A stretch of 64,000 bases of DNA from a virus (lineage: Duplodnaviria; Heunggongvirae; Uroviricota; Caudoviricetes), in the IMG/VR virus record IMGVR_UViG_2851938318_000001. One strand, 5' to 3'. Positions within the stretch are counted from its first letter, which is position 1; the number at the start of each line of letters is the position of its first letter. The notes under the pieces were generated by a model. It saw nothing but the letters and a program-made list of their open reading frames with translations, did not search any database and had not been told where the DNA came from. A program made the position numbers and the translations under genes. Below are positions 7,459 through 21,707 of this stretch, piece by piece.

Positions 7459-7633
7459 TGGAGAGTTCCCTTTGCGTATATAATTATCGTCTGAAACAAC
7501 TTGTTTTCTTATATGTGATATAGCCTAAATGCCTACGGCTGCGGTGTAAAGGTTAAATGGTAGGTTGTGATTAACAATTTGAACCGCCCCGGAAATCCTG
7601 GAGACTAAACTCCCTGAGAAAGAGGTAAACAGG

Positions 7634-7960
7634 ATGACTAAAAATACTCGTTTTTCCCCCGAAGTCCGTCAGCGGGCGATTCGTATGGTTCTGGAAAGTC
7701 AGGATGAATATGACTCACAGTGGGCGGCAATTTGTTCCATTGCCCCAAAGATTGGCTGTACGCCGGAGACTCTGCGTGTCTGGGTTCGCCAGCATGAGCG
7801 GGATACCGGGGGCGGTGATGGTGGGCTCACCAGCGCTGAACGTCAGCGTCTGAAAGAGCTGGAACGTGAAAATCGTGAACTGCGCCGCAGTAACGATATC
7901 CTTCGCCAGGCTTCCGCTTATTTTGCGAAGGCGGAGTTCGACCGCCTCTGGAAAAAATGA
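7634..7960 (+). CDS. IS3-family transposase OrfA (HTH)
   Basis: 108 aa; A-run at the orfA/orfB overlap consistent with -1 frameshifting. Confidence 0.85.
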
Positions 7961-8847
7961 TGCCACTGCTGGATAAGCTGCGTGAGCAGTACGGGGTCGG
8001 ACCGGTATGCAGCGAACTGCATATTGCCCCGTCAACGTATTACCATTGTCAGCAACAGCGACATCATCCGGATAAACGCAGTGCCCGTGCGCAGCACGAC
8101 GACTGGCTGAAGAGAGAGATACAGCGCGTATACGATGAAAATCATCAGGTGTACGGTGTGCGTAAAGTCTGGCGTCAGTTGTTACGGGAAGGAATCAGGG
8201 TGGCCAGATGTACAGTGGCACGTCTCATGGCGGTTATGGGACTTGCCGGTGTTCTCCGGGGTAAAAAGGTCCGTACGACCATCAGCCGGAAAGCCGTTGC
8301 CGCAGGCGACCGCGTAAACCGTCAGTTCGTGGCAGAACGACCTGACCAGCTGTGGGTGGCTGATTTTACTTACGTCAGCACATGGCAGGGCTTCGTCTAT
8401 GTGGCGTTTATCATTGATGTGTTTGCCGGATACATCGTGGGGTGGCGGGTCTCATCGTCTATGGAAACGACATTCGTGCTGGATGCGCTGGAGCAGGCGT
8501 TGTGGGCCCGTCGTCCGTCTGGCACCATCCATCACAGCGATAAAGGCTCTCAGTATGTGTCACTGGCCTATACGGAGCGACTAAAAGAAGCCGGATTACT
8601 GGCATCAACAGGGAGTACAGGCGACTCGTATGACAACGCGATGGCTGAGAGCATCAATGGTCTTTACAAAGCGGAGGTAATACACCGTAAGAGCTGGAAA
8701 AACCGTGCAGAAGTGGAACTGGCCACACTAACGTGGGTGGACTGGTATAACAATCGACGATTGCTGGGAAGGCTGGGCCATACTCCTCCGGCAGAAGCAG
8801 AAAAAGCTTATTATGCTTCCATCGGAAACGATGATCTGGCAGCCTGA
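7957..8847 (+). CDS. IS3-family transposase OrfB (DDE catalytic domain)
   Basis: 296-aa ORF in the -1 frame relative to OrfA. Confidence 0.85.
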
Positions 8848-9089
8848 GTTCACAGATAAAACACTCTCCAGGAAACCCGGGGCGGTTCAATTGGCAATCA
8901 TAGCTTGTATTTGTCTGTTGAAAAAAGTAACAATGACCTCTATATTACAAGTACGGTGATATGCCGTACACAATTTGATAATGCACACGTAATGGGCTAT
9001 AGCCTTTTAAAGTAATTTTTGAGTCGAAAACTCAGTTTGAACAGAGGAGATTGATGGCCTTCCTACATCACGGCCATCAGGAGGAATAC

Positions 9090-9359
9090 ATGTCAGCACT
9101 AAAAAAGCAGCGCATCGATTTGAGATTAACCGATGACGATAAAAGCATCATCGAGGAAGCTGCCGCAATGTCTAACCAGAGCATTACTCAGTTTATGGTT
9201 AGCAGTGCATCTGAACGTGCCGTGAAAGTTATAGAGCAACACCGTAGACTAGTTCTGAATGAAGAATCCTGGAATCTGGTTATGGACGCTATAAGCAATC
9301 CTCCGGCACCGAACGACAAGCTGAAACGAGCTGCTGATCGTCTGAAAAGCATGGAGTAG
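9090..9359 (+). CDS. DUF1778-type antitoxin (TacA-like)
   Basis: Start chosen at ATG 9090 preceded by AGGAGG; about 89 aa; immediately upstream of the GNAT toxin gene. Confidence 0.65.
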   Translation: MSALKKQRIDLRLTDDDKSIIEEAAAMSNQSITQFMVSSASERAVKVIEQHRRLVLNEESWNLVMDAISNPPAPNDKLKRAADRLKSME

Positions 9360-9366
9360 TTTACTC

Positions 9367-9888
9367 GTGAGCAATACAACGATAGAGATTTTCTCTGGAG
9401 AGAAAGATTATGATCTAAACGGTTTTGATTGCGGCGAAGAGTCACTAAACGCCTTTTTAGCCAACCACTTAAAAAGGCAGCATGAGGGAAAAATTCTTCG
9501 TGCTTATGTGCTTTGCACTCAAGAAGAAAGGCCAAAAGTGTTAGGATATTACACTTTGTCAGGTAGTTGTTTTGAAAAGGAGTCCTTACCTTCAAGAAGC
9601 AAACAAAAGAAGGTTCCTTATCGGAATGTTCCAAGTGTTACTTTGGGTAGGCTGGCTTTGGACAAGCCCCTTCAAGGTCAAGGATTTGGCTCAATGCTTG
9701 TAACACATGCAATGCGCGTTGTGTACAATGCATCTCTTGCTGTAGGCATTCATGGACTTTTCGTTGAGGCGTTAAATGACAAAGCCAAGGCGTTTTATAA
9801 AAGTTTAGGCTTTATCCAGCTGGTTGGTAACAACGAGCGTTCTTTGTTCTATCCTACAAAATCTATCGAAAAATTGTTCGAAGAATAA
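9367..9888 (+). CDS. GNAT-family acetyltransferase toxin (TacT-like)
   Basis: 173 aa; acyl-CoA-binding motif QGQGFGSMLV; GTG start 8 nt after antitoxin stop. Confidence 0.65.
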   Translation: MSNTTIEIFSGEKDYDLNGFDCGEESLNAFLANHLKRQHEGKILRAYVLCTQEERPKVLGYYTLSGSCFEKESLPSRSKQKKVPYRNVPSVTLGRLALDKPLQGQGFGSMLVTHAMRVVYNASLAVGIHGLFVEALNDKAKAFYKSLGFIQLVGNNERSLFYPTKSIEKLFEE

Positions 9889-10056
9889 TGTGTTCCCCTC
9901 ATTTGAGGGGAACTTCGACATCACCAACCACAAACCCTCTCTCCCATCGTATTGTGAAAAAGGATTTGGCGTTCGGTTTCTTCAGTCATTACATCATTAT
10001 TGCTGATATAGATAGGCTCAGCCCCATCGCAGAACAACACGCTGGCTGTTTGTGGT

Positions 10057-10308
10057 TTAATGACGCACCCACTTATCATACAACTCACGATGAACGGCAG
10101 AAGCATCTTTCTGACGTATTTTACTGCTCGTCTCATTCACCACTTTCACTGTGTTTTGAAGTCGTTTTCTGTCTTCCTGTTTTGCCTTCTCTTCCATTGC
10201 TCGTCGCGCCGCATTCCCGCCCATCGTGTAAGCGCCGACAAGAACGAAAAGAACGGCAGCCAGCGTAATCAAAGCAACTTTTAGCTTTGTCATCAGGCTG
10301 CCTAGCAT
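10057..10308 (-). CDS. spanin-like protein (N-terminal transmembrane helix + charged coiled region)
   Basis: 83 aa; TM segment LKVALITLAAVLFVLVGAY followed by KAKQEDRKRLQ-rich region; last gene of the lysis-like cassette. Confidence 0.4.
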   Translation of the reverse strand: MLGSLMTKLKVALITLAAVLFVLVGAYTMGGNAARRAMEEKAKQEDRKRLQNTVKVVNETSSKIRQKDASAVHRELYDKWVRH

Positions 10309-10309
10309 A

Positions 10310-11029
10310 TTAGACCATCCCTTTCTGGTGTTTTCTTACCTGCGACCAGGCAATGAATCCTGCCACAACAATAGTGGCAATACCGAAGATAATGCGTACT
10401 GTATCCCCGCTAGAGATATGACCTTGTGCTTTATCCATAGCAGCGGAAACCTGCGGCATAACATCGGCCAGCTGCGCCAGACCAATACCTGCTGTAACAG
10501 TTGCGCCTGCGGTTTCTTTAGTTACAGGAACAGCCTTCACGGTTTTCACCGGCTTAACAACGCCAGCTCGACGCAGACCTTCCTCAATAACTTCTGCCGC
10601 ATACCAGGTGTTCAGCGTTTTTAGCGGGCCTCGGCCATTCTCGTGGCGAATGATTGCCTCAACCAAAGGTCGAAGGATGTCGTAATCATGCAGATCGATG
10701 ATCATGTCTGCGGTTACACCAACGGCTTTAGACACCTCATTAATGTAGGCGTCAGTATTGTTTTCATTCGGCGGTGCCCAGCGTTCAATAACTTCACGAA
10801 TGGTATCGATACTTGTGCCGTCTTTTGCGCGACGTTTATCGTGGTAGGTAATTAGAGTCACCGCCAGCGCACGAATCCCCCAAACAGGGTCTTTAAACGT
10901 GCAAAAGCGCGGTTCGTCTGGATTCGCAACCAGACCTTGCCACGGTGATCCTTTATCAAGATTACCGGGGTTATTATTACGAATGCCTCTCGGAGTCTTC
11001 ATCCTTGATCTCCTGTTATTGCAGTCCAC
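10310..11029 (-). CDS. candidate endolysin or lysis-module protein with C-terminal membrane anchor
   Basis: 239 aa; conserved-looking N-terminal GIRNNNPGNL...W segment; C-terminal TM helix IIFGIATIVVAGFIAW; sits between holin-like and spanin-like genes. Confidence 0.35.
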   Translation of the reverse strand: MDCNNRRSRMKTPRGIRNNNPGNLDKGSPWQGLVANPDEPRFCTFKDPVWGIRALAVTLITYHDKRRAKDGTSIDTIREVIERWAPPNENNTDAYINEVSKAVGVTADMIIDLHDYDILRPLVEAIIRHENGRGPLKTLNTWYAAEVIEEGLRRAGVVKPVKTVKAVPVTKETAGATVTAGIGLAQLADVMPQVSAAMDKAQGHISSGDTVRIIFGIATIVVAGFIAWSQVRKHQKGMV

Positions 11030-11351
11030 TTTTTACGCCATACGCGGCTAACCCCAAAAGCAGTGCGGTAATAATGAACGACGTTATTTTAGAAACAATG
11101 CCGCCAAAGAACCCACTTGAGATGGAATCTAACCGGTTAAGGAGTTTGTCCAGATTGGAGTGTTGAATACTATGTTGCGCCGGGGTCATATCACCAAAGT
11201 AGGTTTTCAGCTGATCATTGACCTCCTGGCCAATTTCTTCACGTAGCTCTTTACCTAATTTGCCAACAACCTCCCGAGCAACGATCGCGGCAATACGCTC
11301 AACTTGCTCTGTTGTAACGCCCGCCATCTCGTTCGACATGTTTTCCTCCAT
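11016..11351 (-). CDS. holin-like small membrane protein
   Basis: 111 aa; one C-terminal TM helix ITSFIITALLLGLAAYGV; first gene of the lysis-like cassette. Confidence 0.35.
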   Translation of the reverse strand: MEENMSNEMAGVTTEQVERIAAIVAREVVGKLGKELREEIGQEVNDQLKTYFGDMTPAQHSIQHSNLDKLLNRLDSISSGFFGGIVSKITSFIITALLLGLAAYGVKSGLQ

Positions 11352-11541
11352 GAAAAGTCAAATCGGGATGGCGGATTTATATCACACTTCCCCTTTCAAT
11401 TATAGGTATATACTTACCTACCTATGCATATACCGTTTAACGGCTGTTCAAATTCGTATCTAGTAACTCACTAATATATCCCTATGATTGCGGCTGTGAG
11501 ATCGCATTTTAAACCTCACAGCCATATAAATAATGTCTAAA

Positions 11542-14500
11542 TCAGTTACTTGTTGCCCCAACAGTACCTGCAAATTTCAGCCATTGACCTGACGGACTTC
11601 TATTACTACGGTAGTGATAAACGAGGATTGCGTTTGTAATCCCACCATAGTCAGCTTTGTGTGACGTCGTTAAACGAATTGTATAATCACCGTTAGGTAG
11701 ATTAAAAACTTCGATTATAGATTCTGCTAATTCTACAGCACCAAATCCCGTTATATTGTTGATACTGCCAGCATTGAATCCCATAGCATCGCCAAAGCCA
11801 ATCCAATAACTTTTGCTAAACGCCCCATTTGATTTTAGGTGGCTAATGAATGCGGACAAGCTCATGCCCATATCCCCACCTGAAACAGAGGAAGTTCGCA
11901 CAGTCATGCTTGGAAGAGCACTGCTCTTCACATAGGAACTTAGAAGGTTTGTTACCTCTGTTTTCGTGTAAGCATTAACATTAGCCGCAGTCAAAGTTAT
12001 ATCGGCAGAGCCATCAAACGCCACACCAGCAATTTTCCTTGCTGTCTGCAATTTTGTGGCGGTTGCGGCATTACCAGTAGTGTTCTGGTTCCCATCTGCA
12101 TTCACACCTGGGATGCTGTCTTTTTTAGTATATATCTGAGTCCAGTCCTCTTCGAACCCATAGCCATCACGTGATGAACGGTAATACAATCCACCATTTT
12201 TATAATGCGCTCGGATTTGGAGAGTCCGACAACTACCTACGCCTGTATAAAAATTTGCAACGATATAAGAATCCCCGGAGCGTGTAACATTATACGCACC
12301 TGATTCGGCATTCCACGGGACCGCACCACTAGTATCGGCATAAGTTCCAGTAGCGCGTCGAGCAAAAGCAGATACATTTGCAGCTGTTAGTGTTATATCA
12401 GCAGAACCATCAAAAGACACGCCGCTTATTTTTCTAGCAGTTTGCAACTTCGTAGCTGTTGAAGCATTACCGTTCAAGCTGCCATTTACGCCACCAGTAA
12501 CATTTAGTCCATTACCAATGGACACAGCACCGCTGGTATTGTTAATTGTAATCGGTCGCAAACCGTTCCATGAACCTAATGTGTCTCCTGATGCTGTTAG
12601 CATGAAATATGTGTTCGACCCATCATTACGGATAAAGAACCCAAAGCTACCGTAAGCAATGCGGAAACCATTTGCATATTTTGAAATGATCTCGCCAGAA
12701 GATGTCAAACCTCCAGATAATGTCCCACCGGTAAGAGGTAATGCACCAACGTCAGATGCTGTTGGTTTATTTTTCGTGTTATATACTCTTCGCCATCCTG
12801 GAGAATAATCTGTGCCATTAAATACATAGATAAACTCCGCATTAGTGAGAGCACCAGAGACACTCGTCGTTGTGGCCGTTGTTATACGGATCGTATAATT
12901 GTTTGAGCTACTACCGTTATTAAATACCTCTATAACAGCTCCTGCCAATGGAATAACGCCACAACCAGTTTCACTATTTGGTATGGTTGCACTATTGGCA
13001 TAGGCCCACGCACATCGAGCAATCCATGACTTTGTGTTAAATGCTCCATTATTTTGCAATAACGTCACTAACTGTGCTGTTGTTATTGCTCCGCCATTAC
13101 TTCCTGTAGTTAACCAACCAGTAGGAGATGCCGGGCAACCTATATTTGCTGGCGATAAGGAAATATTTGCCGAGCCGTCAAACGACACCCCATTAATAGT
13201 ACGCGCAGTCTGCAACTTCGTAGCAGTAGCCGCGTTGCCCGTTGTATTCTGATTACCAGTCGTATTAACACCTGGCAAATTAATATTCGCAGTACCATCA
13301 AAGCTCACGCCGCCGATAGTTCTTGCCGTCTGAAGTTTTGTAGCAGTTGCAGCATTACCAGTGGTGTTCTGATTACCCGTAGTATTTACACCTGGAAGGT
13401 TGATATTTGCAGAACCGTCGAAACCAACTCCACCGATAGATCTTGCCGTCTGCAATTTCGTTGCTGTACTTGCATTACCATTTAATGTTCCGGTGATCCC
13501 ACCAGTAACAGACAACGGACCTGAAACTGTTCCTCCGGTTGTTGGCAGTGCACCAATATCTAACGGCGTCGGTTTCTGATGTGTGCTATACATCGTATAA
13601 ACAACACCATCGGTAACGCTGGAAGGCTTACTCGCTGAATATGTTGGCGATGTATAAATAGAAACTGTCGCATTTGCAGTACAATCCCAATGGATATTTA
13701 CACTCGTCGCATAATTGCCAATCTCAACGTAAATATCATATGTATCGCCGGATGTGTTGATCCAGGCGAAATTCGTTAATCCGACAGCTGTACGCTTCCA
13801 CAAAGCCCCGGTAATTCCTTTGGGGTTTCCATTGCCTGCTCGTAGAACCAGTTCTGAAATGCCTGCCTGATGTGGGGAACCGACGTTGTAACCAGCGCCA
13901 CCAATCAATGCGATGTAAACGATGGAACTCGCTTGTGGCATGGTAACCGTAGCCAGTTTGAACCACCCAGCCCCGCCAGAGAAAGACATCGTTACTGAAT
14001 TTAAAGTACCAATATCTTTCGGCGTTAATGTTATATCCGCAGTCAATGCTTTTCCGTTAACTTTTCGGTTAGATGGCACCCTGCTATTCGCATTGTCATT
14101 GGCTGCTTTAACTGCTTTTGGCGTTGCGGCCAGCGATTCACTGGTGCTGTCGACAGCACTGCTAAGTTTCACAACACCTTTGGTGGTAAGGCTTGCGTCT
14201 TCCATCGCAACTGCACCGGCAATCTCTTCAGCACGATCAGCGGCAGCTTCCGCACGGGTCGCAGCGGATTCAGCAGCAGTTTTGCTCTGAGATGCAGCTG
14301 TCGCACTGCCTGCCGCCTCTGTTGCCTTCGTGGATGCCGTTGAAGCACTGCTCTTCGCTGCTGATGCCTGCTTGGTCGCCTCATCTTTTGAAGCGGATGC
14401 TGAGGTGGCTGATGCAGACGCAGAACTTGCAGATTCAGCAGCTGCCGCCTTAGAGGAAGCAGCATTGTCTTCTGAGGTCTTTGCATTTGTTTCAGAGGTT

Positions 14501-15567
14501 TTTGCTGCCGATGCTGAATTTTTAGCAGCTGTAGCCTGACTCGTCGCCTCTGTCGCTTTTGTGGTAGCTGTTGTCGCGGATGACAATGCGCTATCCGCAG
14601 ATTTTCCTGCCGCTGTTGCACTTGATGAAGCACTATCCGCACTTGCTGAGGCTGCACTTGCTGACGCTTCTGCCACAGATTTCGAACTGTTTGCAGACGA
14701 TGCACTCTGTTCGGCTGCCGTTTCAGATGCTTTTGCGTTTGTCTCTGACGTTTTTGCTGCCTTAGAGGAATTTGCAGCTTCTGTTGCCGATGATGCAGCC
14801 GCGTTTGCACTCGATGAAGCGTTAGTCTCTGATGCTTTGGCTGCATCCTTAGATGCAGAGGCACTGGACGCAGATATTGCAGCCTCCGATGCTTTGGTCG
14901 ATGCTACAGACGCTGATTCTGCTGCCGCTTCTTTGGCGGCCTCTGCGTTCGTTTCAGATCTTTTCGCAGCAGTTGCACTCGCACTTGCAGCACTTTGTGA
15001 GGATGCCGCAGCGGATGCACTTTGAGACGCTTGAGATGCTTTTTCTCCAGCGGTATTGGCGCTTTCTGCCGCTGCGGCAGCACTGGCCGCCGCCTCACGA
15101 GCTTTGTCGCCAGCAGCATCAATCGCGTCAGTGTTATTTTTATACCACTCAACGTTTTCGTTGTGCTCGTTGACGATCTGCATTAGCGGCTTAACGGTCA
15201 CTTCTGTACCGTCTTCACGCTCGATTGTCACCTCATCCAGAGCAGTCAACCAACTGCGCATGGACTTTGAATCAGCCGACATACGCGACATTAGTGCAGT
15301 AAAGCGCGCGCTAAACTGTGTTAAGTCGCCTTCATAGGTCGTAATGATTCGGCACGGAACTTCAGACTGAGTTTCGCCGGTATAAGGTTCTGAGAGAACA
15401 ATGTTCGTATCACTGGTTACGCGCTTGATCTCATACAGCTTGTTGTCGGGGCCAATGACGATCATCCCCGGCAACACACCATTAGCTGTTACGTTCCAGG
15501 CTGTTCCAACACCAACGAGAGTATTGCTACCCTGTGTAAATGTGATAGTACCTTCCCTGTACCACAT
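11542..15567 (-). CDS. side tail fiber protein
   Basis: 1341 aa; long Ala/Ser-rich low-complexity region; three tandem tail-fiber repeats GNAATATKLQTARxIGGVSFDGxANINLPGVNTTGNQNTT. Confidence 0.75.
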   Translation of the reverse strand: MWYREGTITFTQGSNTLVGVGTAWNVTANGVLPGMIVIGPDNKLYEIKRVTSDTNIVLSEPYTGETQSEVPCRIITTYEGDLTQFSARFTALMSRMSADSKSMRSWLTALDEVTIEREDGTEVTVKPLMQIVNEHNENVEWYKNNTDAIDAAGDKAREAAASAAAAAESANTAGEKASQASQSASAAASSQSAASASATAAKRSETNAEAAKEAAAESASVASTKASEAAISASSASASKDAAKASETNASSSANAAASSATEAANSSKAAKTSETNAKASETAAEQSASSANSSKSVAEASASAASASADSASSSATAAGKSADSALSSATTATTKATEATSQATAAKNSASAAKTSETNAKTSEDNAASSKAAAAESASSASASATSASASKDEATKQASAAKSSASTASTKATEAAGSATAASQSKTAAESAATRAEAAADRAEEIAGAVAMEDASLTTKGVVKLSSAVDSTSESLAATPKAVKAANDNANSRVPSNRKVNGKALTADITLTPKDIGTLNSVTMSFSGGAGWFKLATVTMPQASSIVYIALIGGAGYNVGSPHQAGISELVLRAGNGNPKGITGALWKRTAVGLTNFAWINTSGDTYDIYVEIGNYATSVNIHWDCTANATVSIYTSPTYSASKPSSVTDGVVYTMYSTHQKPTPLDIGALPTTGGTVSGPLSVTGGITGTLNGNASTATKLQTARSIGGVGFDGSANINLPGVNTTGNQNTTGNAATATKLQTARTIGGVSFDGTANINLPGVNTTGNQNTTGNAATATKLQTARTINGVSFDGSANISLSPANIGCPASPTGWLTTGSNGGAITTAQLVTLLQNNGAFNTKSWIARCAWAYANSATIPNSETGCGVIPLAGAVIEVFNNGSSSNNYTIRITTATTTSVSGALTNAEFIYVFNGTDYSPGWRRVYNTKNKPTASDVGALPLTGGTLSGGLTSSGEIISKYANGFRIAYGSFGFFIRNDGSNTYFMLTASGDTLGSWNGLRPITINNTSGAVSIGNGLNVTGGVNGSLNGNASTATKLQTARKISGVSFDGSADITLTAANVSAFARRATGTYADTSGAVPWNAESGAYNVTRSGDSYIVANFYTGVGSCRTLQIRAHYKNGGLYYRSSRDGYGFEEDWTQIYTKKDSIPGVNADGNQNTTGNAATATKLQTARKIAGVAFDGSADITLTAANVNAYTKTEVTNLLSSYVKSSALPSMTVRTSSVSGGDMGMSLSAFISHLKSNGAFSKSYWIGFGDAMGFNAGSINNITGFGAVELAESIIEVFNLPNGDYTIRLTTSHKADYGGITNAILVYHYRSNRSPSGQWLKFAGTVGATSN

Positions 15568-15660: not shown

Positions 15661-18600
15661 TCACAGAAGGCCAATTCTCACTCGGAGGACGTTGTTATCG
15701 TCATAAACGTCAATCCGCTGACCATTTATGACCAATCGCCCATTGCCGCCGCTATTACCGTTAATCTCAAGCGTTCCATTTTTGCCGAACCGCCATCCAG
15801 ATCTACCGCTAACAAAATTGGTAGATTGCAGATCGCCTACTTTTGCATTGGTGATTGTGCCATCCTTGATATACGCACCATTCATATAGGCGATACTGTT
15901 TTCGATAACAAATGGCGTGGTGATCTTCCCGTTAACAGAGTTGACCAAACCAAATCTGTCCGCCTGCACCAAAAACTGAGAAAGACCGGTGGTGTCGATA
16001 CCAAGCGCAATACCGGCAACATACTTCTGCCCTCCGCTCGTTGAAGTCTCCATTTTCAACGTCCACGCGGTTGAGACTTTTTTGTTGGTATCAGCAATGG
16101 CTGTTGCCTGCTGTTGAATTGTCGCGGTATTTCCATCCACCTCTGCTTTCAGAGTATCGATTCGCCCACTTAGAGCATTATCTGCCTGCGTTCTCGCTGT
16201 CGTTTCAGTTGTGACCGCCGCAGAAATGTTGGCTGCTGTTTGAGACTCTAAGTTTGTGATTTGAGTCGCCAGTGCCGCATCTTGCTCTGTACGCGTTTTC
16301 GTTTCGGTTGCTACAGCCGCTTTAATATCCTCTTTGTATTGAGAGGTCAGCTTGGTGATCTGAGATGACAACGCCGAGTCAGCATCAGTTCGAGCCTGCG
16401 TTTCAACTGCAACGGCCGCACTAATATCTTTCGCAGTCTGTGCTTTTAAACTTGAAACCTCTTTTGTTAAAGCGGTATCACCATCTGCACGAGCCGTTGT
16501 TTCTCTGGCAAGAGATGCCTCGAGATCATTAGCTTTTGCTGTAAGAGACGTAATCTGAGTGGACAATGCACTATCGGCATCAGTCCTTGCCTTTGTCTCT
16601 ACAGCAACCGCTGCGGCAATGTCAGTTCCGGTCTGCGCCCGCAGGATGTTAATTTCTCGTGAGAGCGCCTCGTCAGCACTTGCTCTAGCCTCCTGCTCCT
16701 GAGTGATGGCGGCGGATATATCACCGTCAACCTTTGCTTGAAGCTGGTTTATTTGTTTGGCTAAGGCAGAGTCCCCGCTTGCTCGAGCCTCCTGCTCACT
16801 ACGTATTGCAGCAGAAATATCATCATCAACCTTTGCCTGAAGTTGGGTGATCTGGCTTGCCAGAGCCGAATCTTCCGTTGCTCGGGCTTCTTGCTCCTCC
16901 TTAATAGCTGCGACGATATCGTTGCTTACTTTCGACTCAAGCTGAGTGATCTGTGTCGTCAGAGCTTCATCGGCAGATGTACGAGCCTCCTGCTCTGTAC
17001 TAATCGCCGCGCTGATATCTCCTTCAAACTTAGATTGCAGCTGAGTGACACGCTTTGCCAACGCTTCATCGCCATCGGCACGAGCGGTGGACTCTTCCAG
17101 AATACTGGCCTTAATGTCTTCGCCAATTTCTACGCGAATTTCCTCAACCTTCGTGGCCATTGCAGACATATCATCAGCAAAGGTTTTCTGTGTTGTTGCG
17201 ATCTTCGCGTTATTGACCATCTGCTTGTGCTGGTCTTCATCTTGACGAAGAGCCAGGTCAATGTTTGTTTTGGCCAACGCCTCAATGTTCGTAGTCAGCT
17301 CTGCACTTGCACGATCGACCTCTGCAACCGTCTTTTTCATTTCTTCAACGGCAGCGGAGCTTTCCTCTACCGTTGACTGCAACACTTCCAGTTGTTTAGC
17401 GTTTGCAGCATCGCCTTCAACACGAGCCTCGCTTTCCTTAGCAATAAGAGCCGCCGCTTCATCTCTTGCAGCCTTTATTGCCTCGACTGTATTAGCGAGA
17501 GCTTTATCGTGTTCAGATACGGCGTTTTCGATTTCAACAATTGCAGCATCAGTAGCATCAATTTTTTCAAACGCTTCATTGACCTTGTCGATCGTTGCCG
17601 AAACCTCACCTTTAAGCTCGGTTTGTGCGTTCTCCAAAGCATCGCTACGCTCGTTGAATTTTATTTCAAAATCCGCGAGGTTATCGCTGAACTGCTTATC
17701 TAATTCAGCTATATCTTCCTTAACGTCGTTTACCGCCCCCTCCAAAGATTCGACGCTCTGGTTGATATGCTCATTTAACTCGTCAACTGCTTCTTGAGAG
17801 GCTTTGCTGTTGATGTCCTCAAGCAGAGCCTGACCAAGCTCGGAAGATGTAATTTTGCCAGTCAGGAACGACAGTACATCGCGAGTTGTCGCCTCTGTAC
17901 CCAAGTTTGAGTTCGGAGGACTTAACATACCTCGCTTGTTCGATGCTCGAACCCAGTAATACCACGTTTCACTATCCCCAAGACCAGCATGTGTAAAGGT
18001 GGTGCTTGCAGACTCTGCGATCAGTTTCGCCGTATCCAGATTGTTGGTCTGGGATGCGTAAACATTAATGTGATCAAGGTCTACCGAATCTGGATTAACC
18101 CAATTCAGTATCACATTACGATAGTCTCCAACGGCCGTTAATGACGTTGGTGCATCCGGCGGTGTCATTGTGCCCAGCACCTGATAAACGGTACTGATAA
18201 TTTCTGTTTTTTTACCGTTGAATGAAACCGCATACAGTTGGAAGTCGTAGCGTCCATTCTCCGCGACATTAACGATTTCGTATTGCTCTTCGGTTACACG
18301 CGCCGATTGCCAGTTCGATACATTGTTTTCATCAGAACGTCGCCAACTGATCCAATACTCTGGAGATTTCCCTTCCCATGTTGCAGTCAGTTTTACTGAC
18401 AGGTTGCCCGGGCTTGAGAGATAAGTCCCTTCAGTGATTTGCAGATTAGATGGCTTGGAGTAAGTTGGGTCCAATACCGTCGTATTCTGCGGGATCAGCG
18501 TTGCACCATTGTCGATTGCCTCATATTTAGACGGATTGTTCTCAACAGCGGTGATGTCAAAGCTACCCGGCGTTTCCCCCTGCGCGATGTTAACGATGCG

Positions 18601-19530
18601 AACGCGCATAGGTTCGAGGTCTGGTTCTGTAATAGTCCAGACGCCGTTCAAAACAGGCGTTTCAGCCGAAGACAGGGCTTTTGAAAACGTAACTTTTGTT
18701 ATATTTTCGCCAGTTTCAAGAACATCGCGTTCAACGATTTTGCCTTCCTGATTCAGTATTCGAATAAAGCAGCCGCCTTTGGCTAACGACACAGGCGCAT
18801 CGAGTGTGACGCTGTTTTTGGTAAACGCCACAATTCGACCTGAGTTACGTTTGCCTGCGCGATATTTGTTCTGAATCAGAACGGTTTCACCAGGCATCAG
18901 AAATGACGCGTCTAAGCCGGCAGTAAATGTAATTACATCCGACTCCATTCTGGAGGTATATAAAAGCCACAAACCAACTCGGTGAGCCTGCCCTCGGCTT
19001 GTACAGCCAAATGCTACGACTTCTGTTTTACGCTCACCATAACGGCGCATTGCGTCCTGATCTTCGACGTACTCGATGTTTTGCTTATAACCGTCCTCCT
19101 TGTTGTTGTAGGTTACGAGCGCAACGGATGGGCGATCTTTACGCGCAGAACCTTTATAGGTAAACAATCCATCTTTGACGTTAGAGTTGGTAAACATCAT
19201 TACCGGATCTGATGGGCTATCCTGCATGATGTTAACCATCCCACCAGCCCAAAACACCATGCCGCGGAATGCTCCGGCAATATCCTGAATTAGCCGGTAT
19301 GCGTCCTGTCGACTGGTGATCTGCGTATTGATTGCAAAGCGTTTCTCTTTGCCACCAAAGCCATCATCGACCTCTTCGTCACAATATCGACCAATCTGGT
19401 ACAACTGGCCAAGGTCAATCATAGATTCCGACACATACTGACCAAGGCCATATCGAGCATTGGTCAGCAAATCAAAGAGAATCCACGCGGGGTTCGAAGA
19501 AGACAACAGCTTAAAAGTGCCATCCCATAC
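15661..19530 (-). pseudogene. host-specificity (tail tip) protein J, C-terminal fragment, cut by IS insertion
   Basis: Reading frame stays open up to the IS boundary at 19530 and reads V-WDGTFKLLSSSNPAWILFDLL, contiguous with the lambda J-like N-terminal fragment; central coiled-coil repeats (ISAAI/EQEARA). Confidence 0.8.
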
Positions 19531-19572
19531 TGAACCGCCCCGGGTTTCCTGGAGAGTGTTTTATCTGTGAAC

Positions 19573-20463
19573 TCAGGCTGCCAGATCATCGTTTCCGATG
19601 GAAGCATAATAAGCTTTTTCTGCTTCTGCCGGAGGAGTATGGCCCAGCCTTCCCAGCAATCGTCGATTGTTATACCAGTCCACCCACGTTAGTGTGGCCA
19701 GTTCCACTTCTGCACGGTTTTTCCAGCTCTTACGGTGTATTACCTCCGCTTTGTAAAGACCATTGATGCTCTCAGCCATCGCGTTGTCATACGAGTCGCC
19801 TGTACTCCCTGTTGATGCCAGTAATCCGGCTTCTTTTAGTCGCTCCGTATAGGCCAGTGACACATACTGAGAGCCTTTATCGCTGTGATGGATGGTGCCA
19901 GACGGACGACGGGCCCACAACGCCTGCTCCAGCGCATCCAGCACGAATGTCGTTTCCATAGACGATGAGACCCGCCACCCCACGATGTATCCGGCAAACA
20001 CATCAATGATAAACGCCACATAGACGAAGCCCTGCCATGTGCTGACGTAAGTAAAATCAGCCACCCACAGCTGGTCAGGTCGTTCTGCCACGAACTGACG
20101 GTTTACGCGGTCGCCTGCGGCAACGGCTTTCCGGCTGATGGTCGTACGGACCTTTTTACCCCGGAGAACACCGGCAAGTCCCATAACCGCCATGAGACGT
20201 GCCACTGTACATCTGGCCACCCTGATTCCTTCCCGTAACAACTGACGCCAGACTTTACGCACACCGTACACCTGATGATTTTCATCGTATACGCGCTGTA
20301 TCTCTCTCTTCAGCCAGTCGTCGTGCTGCGCACGGGCACTGCGTTTATCCGGATGATGTCGCTGTTGCTGACAATGGTAATACGTTGACGGGGCAATATG
20401 CAGTTCGCTGCATACCGGTCCGACCCCGTACTGCTCACGCAGCTTATCCAGCAGTGGCATCAT
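19573..20463 (-). CDS. IS3-family transposase OrfB
   Basis: 296-aa ORF identical to the copy-1 OrfB. Confidence 0.85.
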
Positions 20464-20786
20464 TTTTTCCAGAGGCGGTCGAACTCCGCCTTCGCAAAAT
20501 AAGCGGAAGCCTGGCGAAGGATATCGTTACTGCGGCGCAGTTCACGATTTTCACGTTCCAGCTCTTTCAGACGCTGACGTTCAGCGCTGGTGAGCCCACC
20601 ATCACCGCCCCCGGTATCCCGCTCATGCTGGCGAACCCAGACACGCAGAGTCTCCGGCGTACAGCCAATCTTTGGGGCAATGGAACAAATTGCCGCCCAC
20701 TGTGAGTCATATTCATCCTGACTTTCCAGAACCATACGAATCGCCCGCTGACGGACTTCGGGGGAAAAACGAGTATTTTTAGTCAT
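20460..20786 (-). CDS. IS3-family transposase OrfA
   Basis: 108-aa ORF identical to the copy-1 OrfA. Confidence 0.85.
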
Positions 20787-20840
20787 CCTGTTTACCTCTT
20801 TCTCAGGGAGTTTAGTCTCCAGGATTTCCGGGGCGGTTCA

Positions 20841-21707
20841 TACCCCAGCGTAAGTGTTACTGGACTCGTTATAGTTTGAAGGTACTCGAATTTTTAGGCC
20901 ACGCACCAGATAAGAGCGAGATGGCATGGTGCTACCGAATTGCTCAGAGTTTACCTTCAATCCAACCAAAACAGAGTTTGGATAGTTCATCGGTGTATCG
21001 ACAATTTCCCCGATTGAATCCACCCATGTATCGTTATAGAGATACTGGCTACTGTTATCATCGGTAATACGGACTACACGAACCTTGTATGCGCGTCCAG
21101 GCTTAGGCAGCTTCAGCTCGTAGCTACGGTAATAAACGCCGGTCTTCTTTGCTGTTAGCTTAATGCCAACGCTTTTTTCACCTTCCGCGACCACATCTAC
21201 AAATGTTGAGTCGCCATTTGCTATCTGGAACTTGTACTCAACAGTCGTACCGTTCGTGTCACCAGTTTTTTTATCTATGCTTCGCAAAGAAGGAAACTTC
21301 ATGATGACACGAACCCGATCAGCTTCATCGTTATCGATTGAAACCGTTACATAATGTGTTTTTTTTAACTGGATATTGACGGATTTAGGCGTTTCAACGA
21401 AATCAAAGCCAGACATTGGAGTCTGGTCTTGTGAACCGTCGCGAAAATCCCATGTGATTCCGCTGAAGTTGGAGGAACCGTCTTCATTTACAATCGGCAG
21501 ATCGTCGATAAAAATAGATCTTGCGCCATTTACTAAGCCGCCAATTACCCCTTCCCCAAGAAGATCGAGGATAGCGGCCATTGCACGAGAATTTACGGTA
21601 TCGTCGGCTTCAACCGGTGTACGGCTGGAGCTTTTGCTGCTTTTTTTACCACCCGCACCGGCAATAAACAGCGGTAGCTTTTTCTTCTTGAACTGTTCCA
21701 TGTTCAA
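20841..21707 (-). pseudogene. host-specificity protein J, N-terminal fragment
   Basis: 289 codons ending ...VPSNYNESSNTYAGV exactly at the IS boundary; the stop codon is supplied by the IS end (TGA of TGAACC). Confidence 0.8.

Follow-up and report, generated by a model that had tools for sequence, protein, structure and literature searches.

Endolysins of the type considered here have been described from Chi-like phages. The enzyme of the Hafnia phage Enc34 (ORF39; PDB 7Q47; Cernooka et al. 2022, PMC8943055) is muralytic on permeabilised Escherichia coli, Pseudomonas and Hafnia, as shown with the ORF39deltaC form, and ends in a membrane domain of two helices, on account of which the full-length protein is toxic. 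Glu131 of this enzyme is catalytic, Trp79 and Tyr95 are conserved and position the substrate, and a relationship to GH73 and GH23 is seen only in the three-dimensional core (PMC8943055). The same authors saw this architecture as confined to the Chi-like phages and some of their relatives, and SSU5 is unmentioned in their paper. Here, we analysed a cassette of lysis genes in a 64,000-nucleotide stretch of Caudoviricetes DNA (IMG/VR record IMGVR_UViG_2851938318_000001; this whole stretch is termed the window), which very probably encodes an endolysin of this type in an SSU5-like phage-plasmid.

The second well-described relative is M4Lys of the Salmonella phage BSPM4, with its counterpart Chi gp38 (Bai et al. 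2020, PMC7143992). M4Lys degrades purified peptidoglycan to N-acetylglucosaminidase-type products and alone lyses E. coli, without a holin or Sec, azide giving no block of lysis. M4Lys no longer lyses cells once the transmembrane domain (TMD) or the final 13 residues are removed; by itself, the TMD is bacteriostatic only and the enzymatically active domain (EAD) is harmless, and it is the full-length protein that is lytic. The product of BSPM4 ORF_37, the counterpart of Chi gp37, is not lytic alone and slightly delayed lysis (PMC7143992), and the Siskin and Enc34 papers treat Chi gp37 homologues as the putative holin (Enc34: PMC8943055).

The 1.7-kb cassette region of the window is 100% identical in DNA sequence to plasmid pRM9131-1 of E. 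coli RM9131, 99.1% identical to Escherichia phage Cyrano and 82% identical to Salmonella phage SSU5, and on these identities we assign the source element to the SSU5-like phage-plasmids of E. coli, as pRM9131-1. Orthologues of the cassette are found as SSU5 genes 026-030 and Cyrano genes 22-25, and both records label the cassette holin/endolysin/Rz/Rz1, right after the tail-fibre gene and in the same place as here. A genome announcement for SSU5-like plasmids also mentions "a holin and an endolysin". The PGAP/RefSeq annotation of pRM9131-1 names three of the genes "hypothetical protein" and contains no Rz1.

An earlier note, made from the letters of the window alone, had described three co-oriented genes at this place, with longest open reading frames (ORFs) of 111, 239 (from a GTG) and 83 amino acids, and had placed one transmembrane (TM) segment in each. 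These ORFs were confirmed on the minus strand (Table 1), and hydropathy gave the same layout, with a C-terminal TM segment in genes 1 and 2 and an N-terminal one in gene 3. A fourth gene, which that note had overlooked, encodes an o-spanin lipoprotein of 71 amino acids and overlaps the 3' end of gene 3. The region is contained in 407 plasmid and six phage records, and the ratios of nonsynonymous to synonymous substitution (dN/dS) against SSU5 are low in gene 1 (0.028), the endolysin (0.027), Rz (0.21) and Rz1 (0.17), indicating that the cassette genes are real and not chance ORFs. Purifying selection acts on all four of them. We read the region as the four-gene late lysis cassette of an SSU5-type phage-plasmid, with an Enc34/M4Lys-type endolysin in the middle and an overlapped spanin pair, and give this reading a probability of about 0.88.

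The evidence is most extensive for gene 2. Its likely start is the ATG at 11002, which has AGGAG at 11010-11014 with a 7-nt spacer and is annotated as the start in Cyrano and SSU5 alike, giving a protein of 230 amino acids. No Pfam or NCBIfam model matched this protein above noise, including those for GH24, GH19, SLT, Amidase_2/3 and Peptidase_M15, and this explains why the earlier reader had seen no recognisable standard lysozyme, amidase or transglycosylase motif. For all three proteins of the earlier note, the Pfam and NCBIfam scans yielded noise only and are thus neutral as to a lytic function. In the PHROG collection, the protein of gene 2 matches phrog_873 "endolysin" (E 6.5e-89), with weaker matches to lytic domains within tail and internal virion proteins. 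A phmmer search of the PDB aligned residues 3-151 with the Enc34 endolysin catalytic domain (7Q47_A, E 6.8e-54). An AlphaFold2 (AF2) model built on 35 homologues reached pLDDT values of 84-97 over residues 31-150 and of 57-78 over residues 1-30, and a Foldseek search of the PDB with this model, which had been proposed in the earlier note for the middle protein, returned 7Q47 as the sole significant match (E 4.6e-16, target-normalised TM-score 0.81, 59% identity).

The residues W75, Y86 and E121 of gene 2 correspond to Trp79, Tyr95 and Glu131 of Enc34 and are invariant in the 35 homologues. Judged from this alignment, Glu121 would be the catalytic residue, with Trp75 and Tyr86 positioning the substrate, and the all-helical N-terminal PHA02564 domain would be, by analogy, a lysozyme-fold-related glycosidase. 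The protein is 100% identical to the Cyrano "Endolysin", and its alignment with Chi gp38, at 55% identity, covers 228 of the 230 residues (99%) and takes in the linker, the two helices and the basic tail. M4Lys is likewise a full-length homologue of gene 2, and the experiments on it are the best guide to gene 2 function that its homologues offer. Gene 2 is accordingly classed with its homologues as a putative membrane-anchored Enc34/M4Lys-type endolysin, its lytic activity being taken from Enc34 and M4Lys. The membrane-tethered endolysin of an uncommon family that the earlier note had considered possible was thus borne out by the match to 7Q47, the conserved Glu, Trp and Tyr and the 55% identity to Chi gp38, but the family had already been published: enzyme family, structure, anchor and cassette annotation are all in the literature (2019-2022) and in GenBank.

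The locus has in common with Enc34 a homologous catalytic domain (about 59% identity across 150 residues) that retains Glu, Trp and Tyr, two membrane helices at the C-terminus of the endolysin and an overlapped Rz/Rz1 pair (PMC8943055). It differs in gene 1, which is unrelated to the upstream gene of Enc34 and has its TM helix at the C-terminus, and in its setting, a phage-plasmid of ~110 kb here against a Chi-like siphovirus of 60 kb. Compared with BSPM4 and Chi, the i-spanin is weakly similar and the first cassette gene is a different one.

The Enc34-type catalytic domain is present in about 800 phage records, and its distribution extends to virion proteins. We identified a gene 2-type domain in a second solved structure, at the N-terminus of the large phage protein Gp29 (PDB 9vvp chain L, 1295 amino acids; E 6e-22), and further copies in SP6/K1F-like gp16 proteins, in D3112-like virion proteins and in some tape-measure proteins. 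As these virion proteins contain the same domain, the fold appears to be used in virion-borne entry lysins as well as in endolysins.

The C-terminal third of gene 2 forms a conserved membrane module. Hydropathy showed no hydrophobic segment and no N-terminal signal in residues 1-150, and the protein thus lacks the N-terminal Sec-exported domain of signal-anchor-release (SAR) endolysins. Across homologues from Enterobacterales, Pasteurellaceae and Alcaligenaceae, P159, T161, E163, G174, Q177 and P183 are invariant, and the invariance of PVTKET, G174, Q177 and P183 implies that the linker is not a loose tether and would have a specific interaction or conformational role. The proximal segment is rich in Gly, Ala and Thr, with a mean Eisenberg hydrophobicity of about 0.5 over residues 164-183 and low-confidence AF2 helices at 162-170 and 182-194. 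The distal helix spans residues 199-226 in the AF2 model and is followed by a tail with a net charge of +3. The weak proximal helix, hydrophobic distal helix and basic tail of the Enc34/M4Lys membrane domain are therefore all present in gene 2. By analogy, the two-helix module may resemble pinholins such as S21 68.

An endolysin homologue on a metagenomic SSU5-like contig (locus L015, 3368-4063) is 40% identical to the gene 2 protein, but has lost the active-site residues (W75 to Y, Y86 to Q, E121 to Y) and has a degenerate GIRNNNPGN segment, whereas its linker and two-helix module are well conserved. No replacement endolysin was seen within this 6-kb locus. The protein may be a catalytically dead enzyme kept for its membrane module, and, since the module is retained where the active-site residues are lost, it appears from these sequences to be selected independently of catalysis.

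For gene 1, the start is likely the ATG at 11339, which has GGAGG at 11345-11349 with a 5-nt spacer and is the one used in the Cyrano and SSU5 records; no Shine-Dalgarno sequence precedes the ATG at 11351. The resulting 107-amino-acid protein is 99% identical to that of Cyrano and 95% identical to that of SSU5, both annotated "holin". It matches phrog_5093 (E 2e-68), listed by PHROG as "unknown function", and a Pfam scan gave noise only, with no holin family matched. Proteins of this family share an N-terminal helix that is charged, then a break at FGDMT, after which a long second helix continues into the C-terminal TM segment; in gene 1, AF2 models a continuous helix over residues 53-103. Just five residues (KSGLQ) lie beyond the sole TM segment and the charged domain is N-terminal, and the protein thus lacks the charged hydrophilic C-terminal tail of canonical holins (classes I-III). 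The order of holin, endolysin and spanin supposed in the earlier note accordingly stands for the endolysin (7Q47, phrog_873) and the spanin (phrog_1026), and its "holin" is a label given to gene 1 by position only.

An exhaustive profile search with the gene 1 family retrieved 56 cluster representatives. The 28 that we aligned all fall in phrog_5093 and none matches Pfam. Only Gly49 (11193-11195), His56 and His60 are invariant in this alignment, and Asp71 is nearly so. Gly49 and the HxxxH pair lie on one helix, ~20 residues ahead of the membrane segment, and the three invariant residues suggest a metal-, pH- or partner-binding site. With the 107-residue protein as query, a word-indexed homology search retrieved SSU5-like copies only, the distant relatives requiring the exhaustive profile search; among ~50,000 phage records the family is confined to SSU5-like phage-plasmids, and tblastn searches of isolated phages with two distant family members likewise returned these elements only.

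We considered Chi gp37 as a relative of gene 1 and rejected it, as neither BLAST nor hhalign showed a relationship. The upstream genes of Chi and Enc34 have an N-terminal TM helix, as against the C-terminal one of gene 1. Chi gp37 itself (locus L003, 1650-1988), upstream of the endolysin and with its TM helix N-terminal, is named "Rz-like spanin" in RefSeq (phrog_7686), which is probably an annotation error. An Alcaligenaceae prophage encodes a 99-amino-acid tail-anchored protein upstream of an Enc34-type endolysin, for which hhalign aligned F-x-D-x-x-P-x-x-H-x-x-x-H with gene 1 at an insignificant probability of just 0.3%, which leaves homology unproven.

We compared gene neighbourhoods for nine distant phrog_5093 members, the window and a Providencia plasmid, about a dozen contigs together. 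In every sampled contig that reaches upstream, the phrog_5093 gene follows tail-fibre or other tail-region genes. It lies directly upstream of an Enc34-type endolysin in the window and two further loci (L011 and L015), of a Peptidase_M15_3 endolysin in three (L013, L017/L018 and L023), and of a GH108 plus PG_binding_3 endolysin in one (L024). The endolysin of L025 is probably of the Peptidase_M15_3 type too, being M15-like by sequence only, and in L019 the phrog_5093 gene is followed by a phrog_8226 holin gene and then by a phrog_669 endolysin. The members of this family thus occupy the holin-type position, at the head of the cassette and by the endolysin whatever the type of the latter, and this guilt-by-association across four endolysin families is good evidence that the gene 1 family has a role in lysis. 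A small holin-like gene with two to three TM segments is also present in the soluble-endolysin cassettes of L016, L017, L019 and L023, while the sampled Enc34-type cassettes have no separate multi-TM holin gene. The small two-TM neighbours were called holins by size and number of TM segments, only one of them having a PHROG holin match. No experiment on any phrog_5093 member turned up in our literature searches, which were aimed at the endolysin family and SSU5 instead.

Genes 3 and 4 have the features of a two-component overlapped spanin, namely an i-spanin with a TM segment and charged helix, and a lipoprotein gene overlapping the 3' end of the i-spanin gene. Gene 3 has an N-terminal TM segment at about residues 8-28 (10225-10287; Kyte-Doolittle maximum 2.4) with 55 charged residues after it, and its charged periplasmic helix ends in a KWVRH motif. 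It is short for an i-spanin and only weakly similar to Chi gp39 (29% identity, E 0.015), but homologues just as short come after the endolysin in Chi and in Pasteurella, Providencia and Alcaligenaceae elements. Gene 4 is read in a different frame and shares 80 nt with gene 3; its product shows 51% identity to Chi gp40 (E 2e-17). Its signal peptide and lipobox read MRRAVKYVRKMLLPFIVSCMISG/C, with the lipobox ISG/C and Cys24 at 10065-10067. In a published spanin census, the o-spanin of SSU5 is grouped with those of Chi, Enc34 and others as the Chi family, and the SSU5 i-spanin is among the ungrouped overlapped i-spanins. We assign genes 3 and 4, from these sequence features, to a predicted two-component spanin consisting of an inner-membrane Rz-like protein and an outer-membrane lipoprotein.

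The short Rz lies immediately or shortly downstream of the distant endolysin homologues in Pasteurella, Providencia and Alcaligenaceae elements, with an (R/K)xxWxR end, and, as Chi and SSU5 do, the Alcaligenaceae locus also encodes an SGC-lipobox lipoprotein. Given this recurrent order, the endolysin and short Rz appear to travel together, with the o-spanin wherever it is readable. Annotation of Rz1 is inconsistent (window 9921-10136; L001 3022-3141; L002 2956-3186): the Cyrano model starts past the lipobox and has 39 amino acids and no signal peptide, and SSU5 has two nested models. The 71-amino-acid reading, with its basic n-region and ISG/C lipobox, is the only one that gives a lipoprotein.

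Table 1. Positions in the window of the lysis cassette genes, their predicted domains and motifs, and the adjoining hairpin.
Feature	Coordinates	Strand	Evidence and remarks
Gene 1, tail-anchored membrane protein of phrog_5093, 107 aa	11016..11339	minus	ORF, Shine-Dalgarno, PHROG; longest ORF 11016-11351, 111 aa
Gene 1, HxxxH motif (His56, His60)	11160..11174	minus	alignment of 28 sequences
Gene 1, C-terminal TM segment (about residues 77-102)	11034..11111	minus	Kyte-Doolittle up to 2.0
Gene 2, Enc34/M4Lys-type endolysin, 230 aa	10310..11002	minus	homology, Shine-Dalgarno; longest ORF 10310-11029 from GTG 11029, 239 aa
Gene 2, catalytic domain, PHA02564-type (residues 1-150), contains GIRNNNPGN	10553..11002	minus	alignment to 7Q47
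Gene 2, active-site codon Trp75	10778..10780	minus	alignment to 7Q47
Gene 2, active-site codon Tyr86	10745..10747	minus	alignment to 7Q47
Gene 2, active-site codon Glu121	10640..10642	minus	alignment to 7Q47
Gene 2, linker (residues 151-161, PVTKET running into 163) and proximal segment (162-194)	10421..10552	minus	conservation, hydropathy
Gene 2, distal TM helix (about residues 199-221) and basic tail VRKHQKGMV	10313..10408	minus	Kyte-Doolittle up to 2.07
Gene 3, i-spanin (Rz-like), 83 aa	10057..10308	minus	phrog_1026 "Rz-like spanin", E 7e-25
Gene 4, o-spanin lipoprotein (Rz1-like), 71 aa	9921..10136	minus	phrog_1275 "Rz-like spanin", E 1.3e-24
GC-rich hairpin	9892..9913	minus	terminator-like scan; 8 nt past the Rz1 stop; 9 pairs, 6 of them G-C

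From these components we propose a possible course of lysis. The membrane module of gene 2 would insert as an N-in/C-in hairpin, holding the enzyme domain at the cytoplasmic face of the membrane, and its two helices would act as a fused class-II-type holin. On triggering, a membrane lesion would expose the peptidoglycan to the tethered enzyme, with the upstream 107-residue protein setting or modulating the timing, and the spanin would then fuse or disrupt the outer membrane. We hold the central part of this proposal (a hairpin with the enzyme cytoplasmic, and a module that is a fused class-II-holin-like domain) tentatively, at a little less than even chances. It was suggested by the basic tail after the distal helix and by the SAR-like Gly/Ala/Thr composition of the proximal helix, and by the retention of the module in the L015 protein that has lost its active-site residues. 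It is also consistent with the absence of a separate multi-TM holin from the Enc34-type cassettes and the presence of one in several phrog_5093 cassettes with soluble endolysins. A hairpin with a short loop needs no SecA and fits the azide result for M4Lys, and the phenotypes of the TMD, the EAD and the full-length M4Lys are those of a holin plus a cytoplasmic endolysin. The Siskin authors predicted the N-in/C-in topology for their own endolysin. A further step, that there is no free-standing canonical holin, that the endolysin module makes the lesion and that the phrog_5093 protein is either an unrecognised holin class or a lysis-timing regulator, is conceivable but rather doubtful.

Several observations weigh against this reading of the cassette or parts of it. 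Pfam and NCBIfam are without any model for the gene 2 protein, and beyond this nothing substantial speaks against its identity. The proximal segment is too weakly hydrophobic for a TM helix, with no Kyte-Doolittle window reaching 1.4, and AF2 confidence is low in this region (pLDDT 40-50). The predictors used by the M4Lys authors favoured a single TMD with a periplasmic enzyme, N-out/C-in (PMC7143992). The hairpin model leaves unexplained how an enzyme that is still tethered gains access to the murein through the lesion. The comparison of cassettes with and without holins draws on a small sample of about a dozen contigs, and on two-TM neighbours called holins from size and TM count alone save for the one with a PHROG match. 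Finally, this element has insertion sequence (IS) copies in gpJ and other genes, and the cassette may never be used productively in this host.

The principal alternative concerns the topology of the enzyme, and in it the comparison with SAR endolysins is central. Enzymes of the SAR class are membrane-tethered, need no canonical large-hole holin and have a hydrophobic segment rich in Gly, Ala and Thr. SAR endolysins that act with pinholins, such as P1 Lyz and R21 of phage 21, resemble gene 2 in the tethering of the enzyme, in lysis without a canonical large-hole holin (comparison in PMC8943055) and in the Gly/Ala/Thr-rich composition of the hydrophobic segment, whereas gene 2 has its anchor at the C-terminus, no N-terminal signal and a different catalytic fold, and its homologue M4Lys is Sec-independent. 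In the alternative, which is like a SAR endolysin anchored by its opposite end, the C-terminal TM helix inserts N-out/C-in, the enzyme is periplasmic, tethered and restrained, and the 107-residue protein is a pinholin whose depolarisation of the membrane releases or activates it. The positive-inside rule fits such an orientation, given the net charge of +3 in the tail after the distal TM helix; Phobius and Phyre2 predicted it for M4Lys (PMC7143992), and the Enc34 authors raised a SAR-like/pinholin scenario (PMC8943055).

A precedent exists in the endolysin LysAP of the Acidovorax phage AP1 (PMC8879335), a "C-terminal SAR endolysin" with another catalytic domain that co-operates with a holin. 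Like gene 2, LysAP is an endolysin of ~227 amino acids whose C-terminal TMD is needed for lysis from within, and a single-TM protein of ~111 amino acids is encoded upstream of it; unlike gene 2, it has an E/D/T triad of the T4-lysozyme type, was reported to depend on Sec and has a holin of the holin 2_3 superfamily. The N-out/C-in orientation would leave the conserved proximal helix and PVTKET linker without a role. Moreover, the SecA inhibitor azide failed to block lysis by M4Lys, and the upstream gene was dispensable (PMC7143992). We consider this alternative unlikely, if by no means negligible, and retain the N-in/C-in hairpin as our working model.

It is also conceivable, at a much lower probability, that the cassette in this plasmid is a silent remnant of a decaying prophage, with no current function. 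pRM9131-1 contains seven IS1203 and one IS91 copies, which interrupt the gpJ tail-tip gene, an exonuclease gene, the gene of an SbcC-like ATPase and nrdA, indicating that this phage-plasmid is probably defective as a phage. However, the four lysis ORFs are intact and 99-100% identical to those of Cyrano, which was deposited as a phage genome, and their ribosome-binding sites have been kept; the insertions appear to be recent, judging from the 100% identity between the two copies within the window. This reading is improbable, and we continue to regard the region as a lysis cassette under purifying selection.

The last alternative, that gene 2 is a virion-associated structural peptidoglycan hydrolase used in infection, with the real endolysin elsewhere, would agree with the occurrence of the same domain in the SP6/K1F-like gp16 internal core, D3112-like "virion protein", tape-measure and 9vvp Gp29 proteins and with the filing of phrog_873 under "head and packaging", but we reject it as highly improbable, since gene 2 is small, stand-alone and anchored by its C-terminus, lies between the holin-position gene and the spanin pair, has full-length Chi-like relatives (M4Lys) that lyse from within (PMC7143992), and has no rival endolysin in the Cyrano and pRM9131-1 annotations. 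The assignment of the middle gene to a non-lytic structural family and an endolysin elsewhere in the element had been named in the earlier note as what would refute its reading; we found neither a non-lytic family that would claim the gene nor a second annotated endolysin. The 143 PGAP features of pRM9131-1 include no lysozyme, amidase or transglycosylase, and in Cyrano none of the 126 features is another lysin, both counts being of annotations only, with hypothetical proteins not individually profiled. The sole peptidase-like entry in the pRM9131-1 annotation is a "C40 family peptidase" tail protein of the lambda-K type. These annotations give strong but not exhaustive support for gene 2 being the only endolysin of the element.

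On its downstream side, the cassette converges with a toxin-antitoxin pair on the plus strand (9051-9888), consisting of a DUF1778 antitoxin and a GNAT acetyltransferase toxin, KacAT/TacAT-like; the Cyrano label for the latter is "KacT acetyltransferase-type toxin". The hairpin at 9892-9913 lies between the lysis cassette and this convergent toxin gene, and its position and pairing suggest a bidirectional terminator, the number of such hits in the region not being above that expected from shuffled sequence. Scans for sigma-70 promoters and terminators yielded no more sites than in shuffled sequence, and we accordingly claim no promoter in the gap at 11352-11541, where the sigma-70 scan was not above this background.

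Upstream, a tail-fibre protein of 1341 amino acids is encoded on the minus strand at 11542-15567. The N-terminal third of this protein is an Ala/Ser-rich low-complexity region, and it contains several copies of a "GNQNTTGNAATATKLQTAR...GV.FDG.A.I" repeat. The Cyrano record notes homology to the P1 S tail fibre, and the PGAP version in pRM9131-1 is shorter.

Two copies of IS1203 (IS3 family), each of 1310 bp, in inverted orientation and 100% identical, are found in the window at 7580-8889 and 19531-20840. The latter splits a gpJ-like tail-tip gene into 20838-21707 and 15661-19506, and elsewhere in pRM9131-1 it is IS1203 and IS91 copies that interrupt the exonuclease, SbcC-like ATPase and nrdA genes. 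Between the two copies in the window lie the tail-fibre genes, the lysis cassette and the toxin-antitoxin genes, and the IS pair could allow this segment to be inverted.

For the finding as given little changes, and the present cassette adds a useful comparison rather than a discovery. The "hypothetical" labels and the missing Rz1 nevertheless persist in hundreds of SSU5-like phage-plasmids, from hosts that include E. coli, Salmonella, Klebsiella and Enterobacter, and, because of these RefSeq/PGAP labels and since Pfam does not model the catalytic domain, automated screens will go on reporting such elements as endolysin-less. The Enc34-type endolysin reaches beyond the Chi-like phages and, on the homologies described above, would be the lysis enzyme of a large and clinically relevant group of phage-plasmids. 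Because the first gene of the SSU5-type cassette differs while its endolysin/spanin module is the same, the two arrangements can naturally be compared to ask how a tethered enzyme of this kind gains access to the cell wall.

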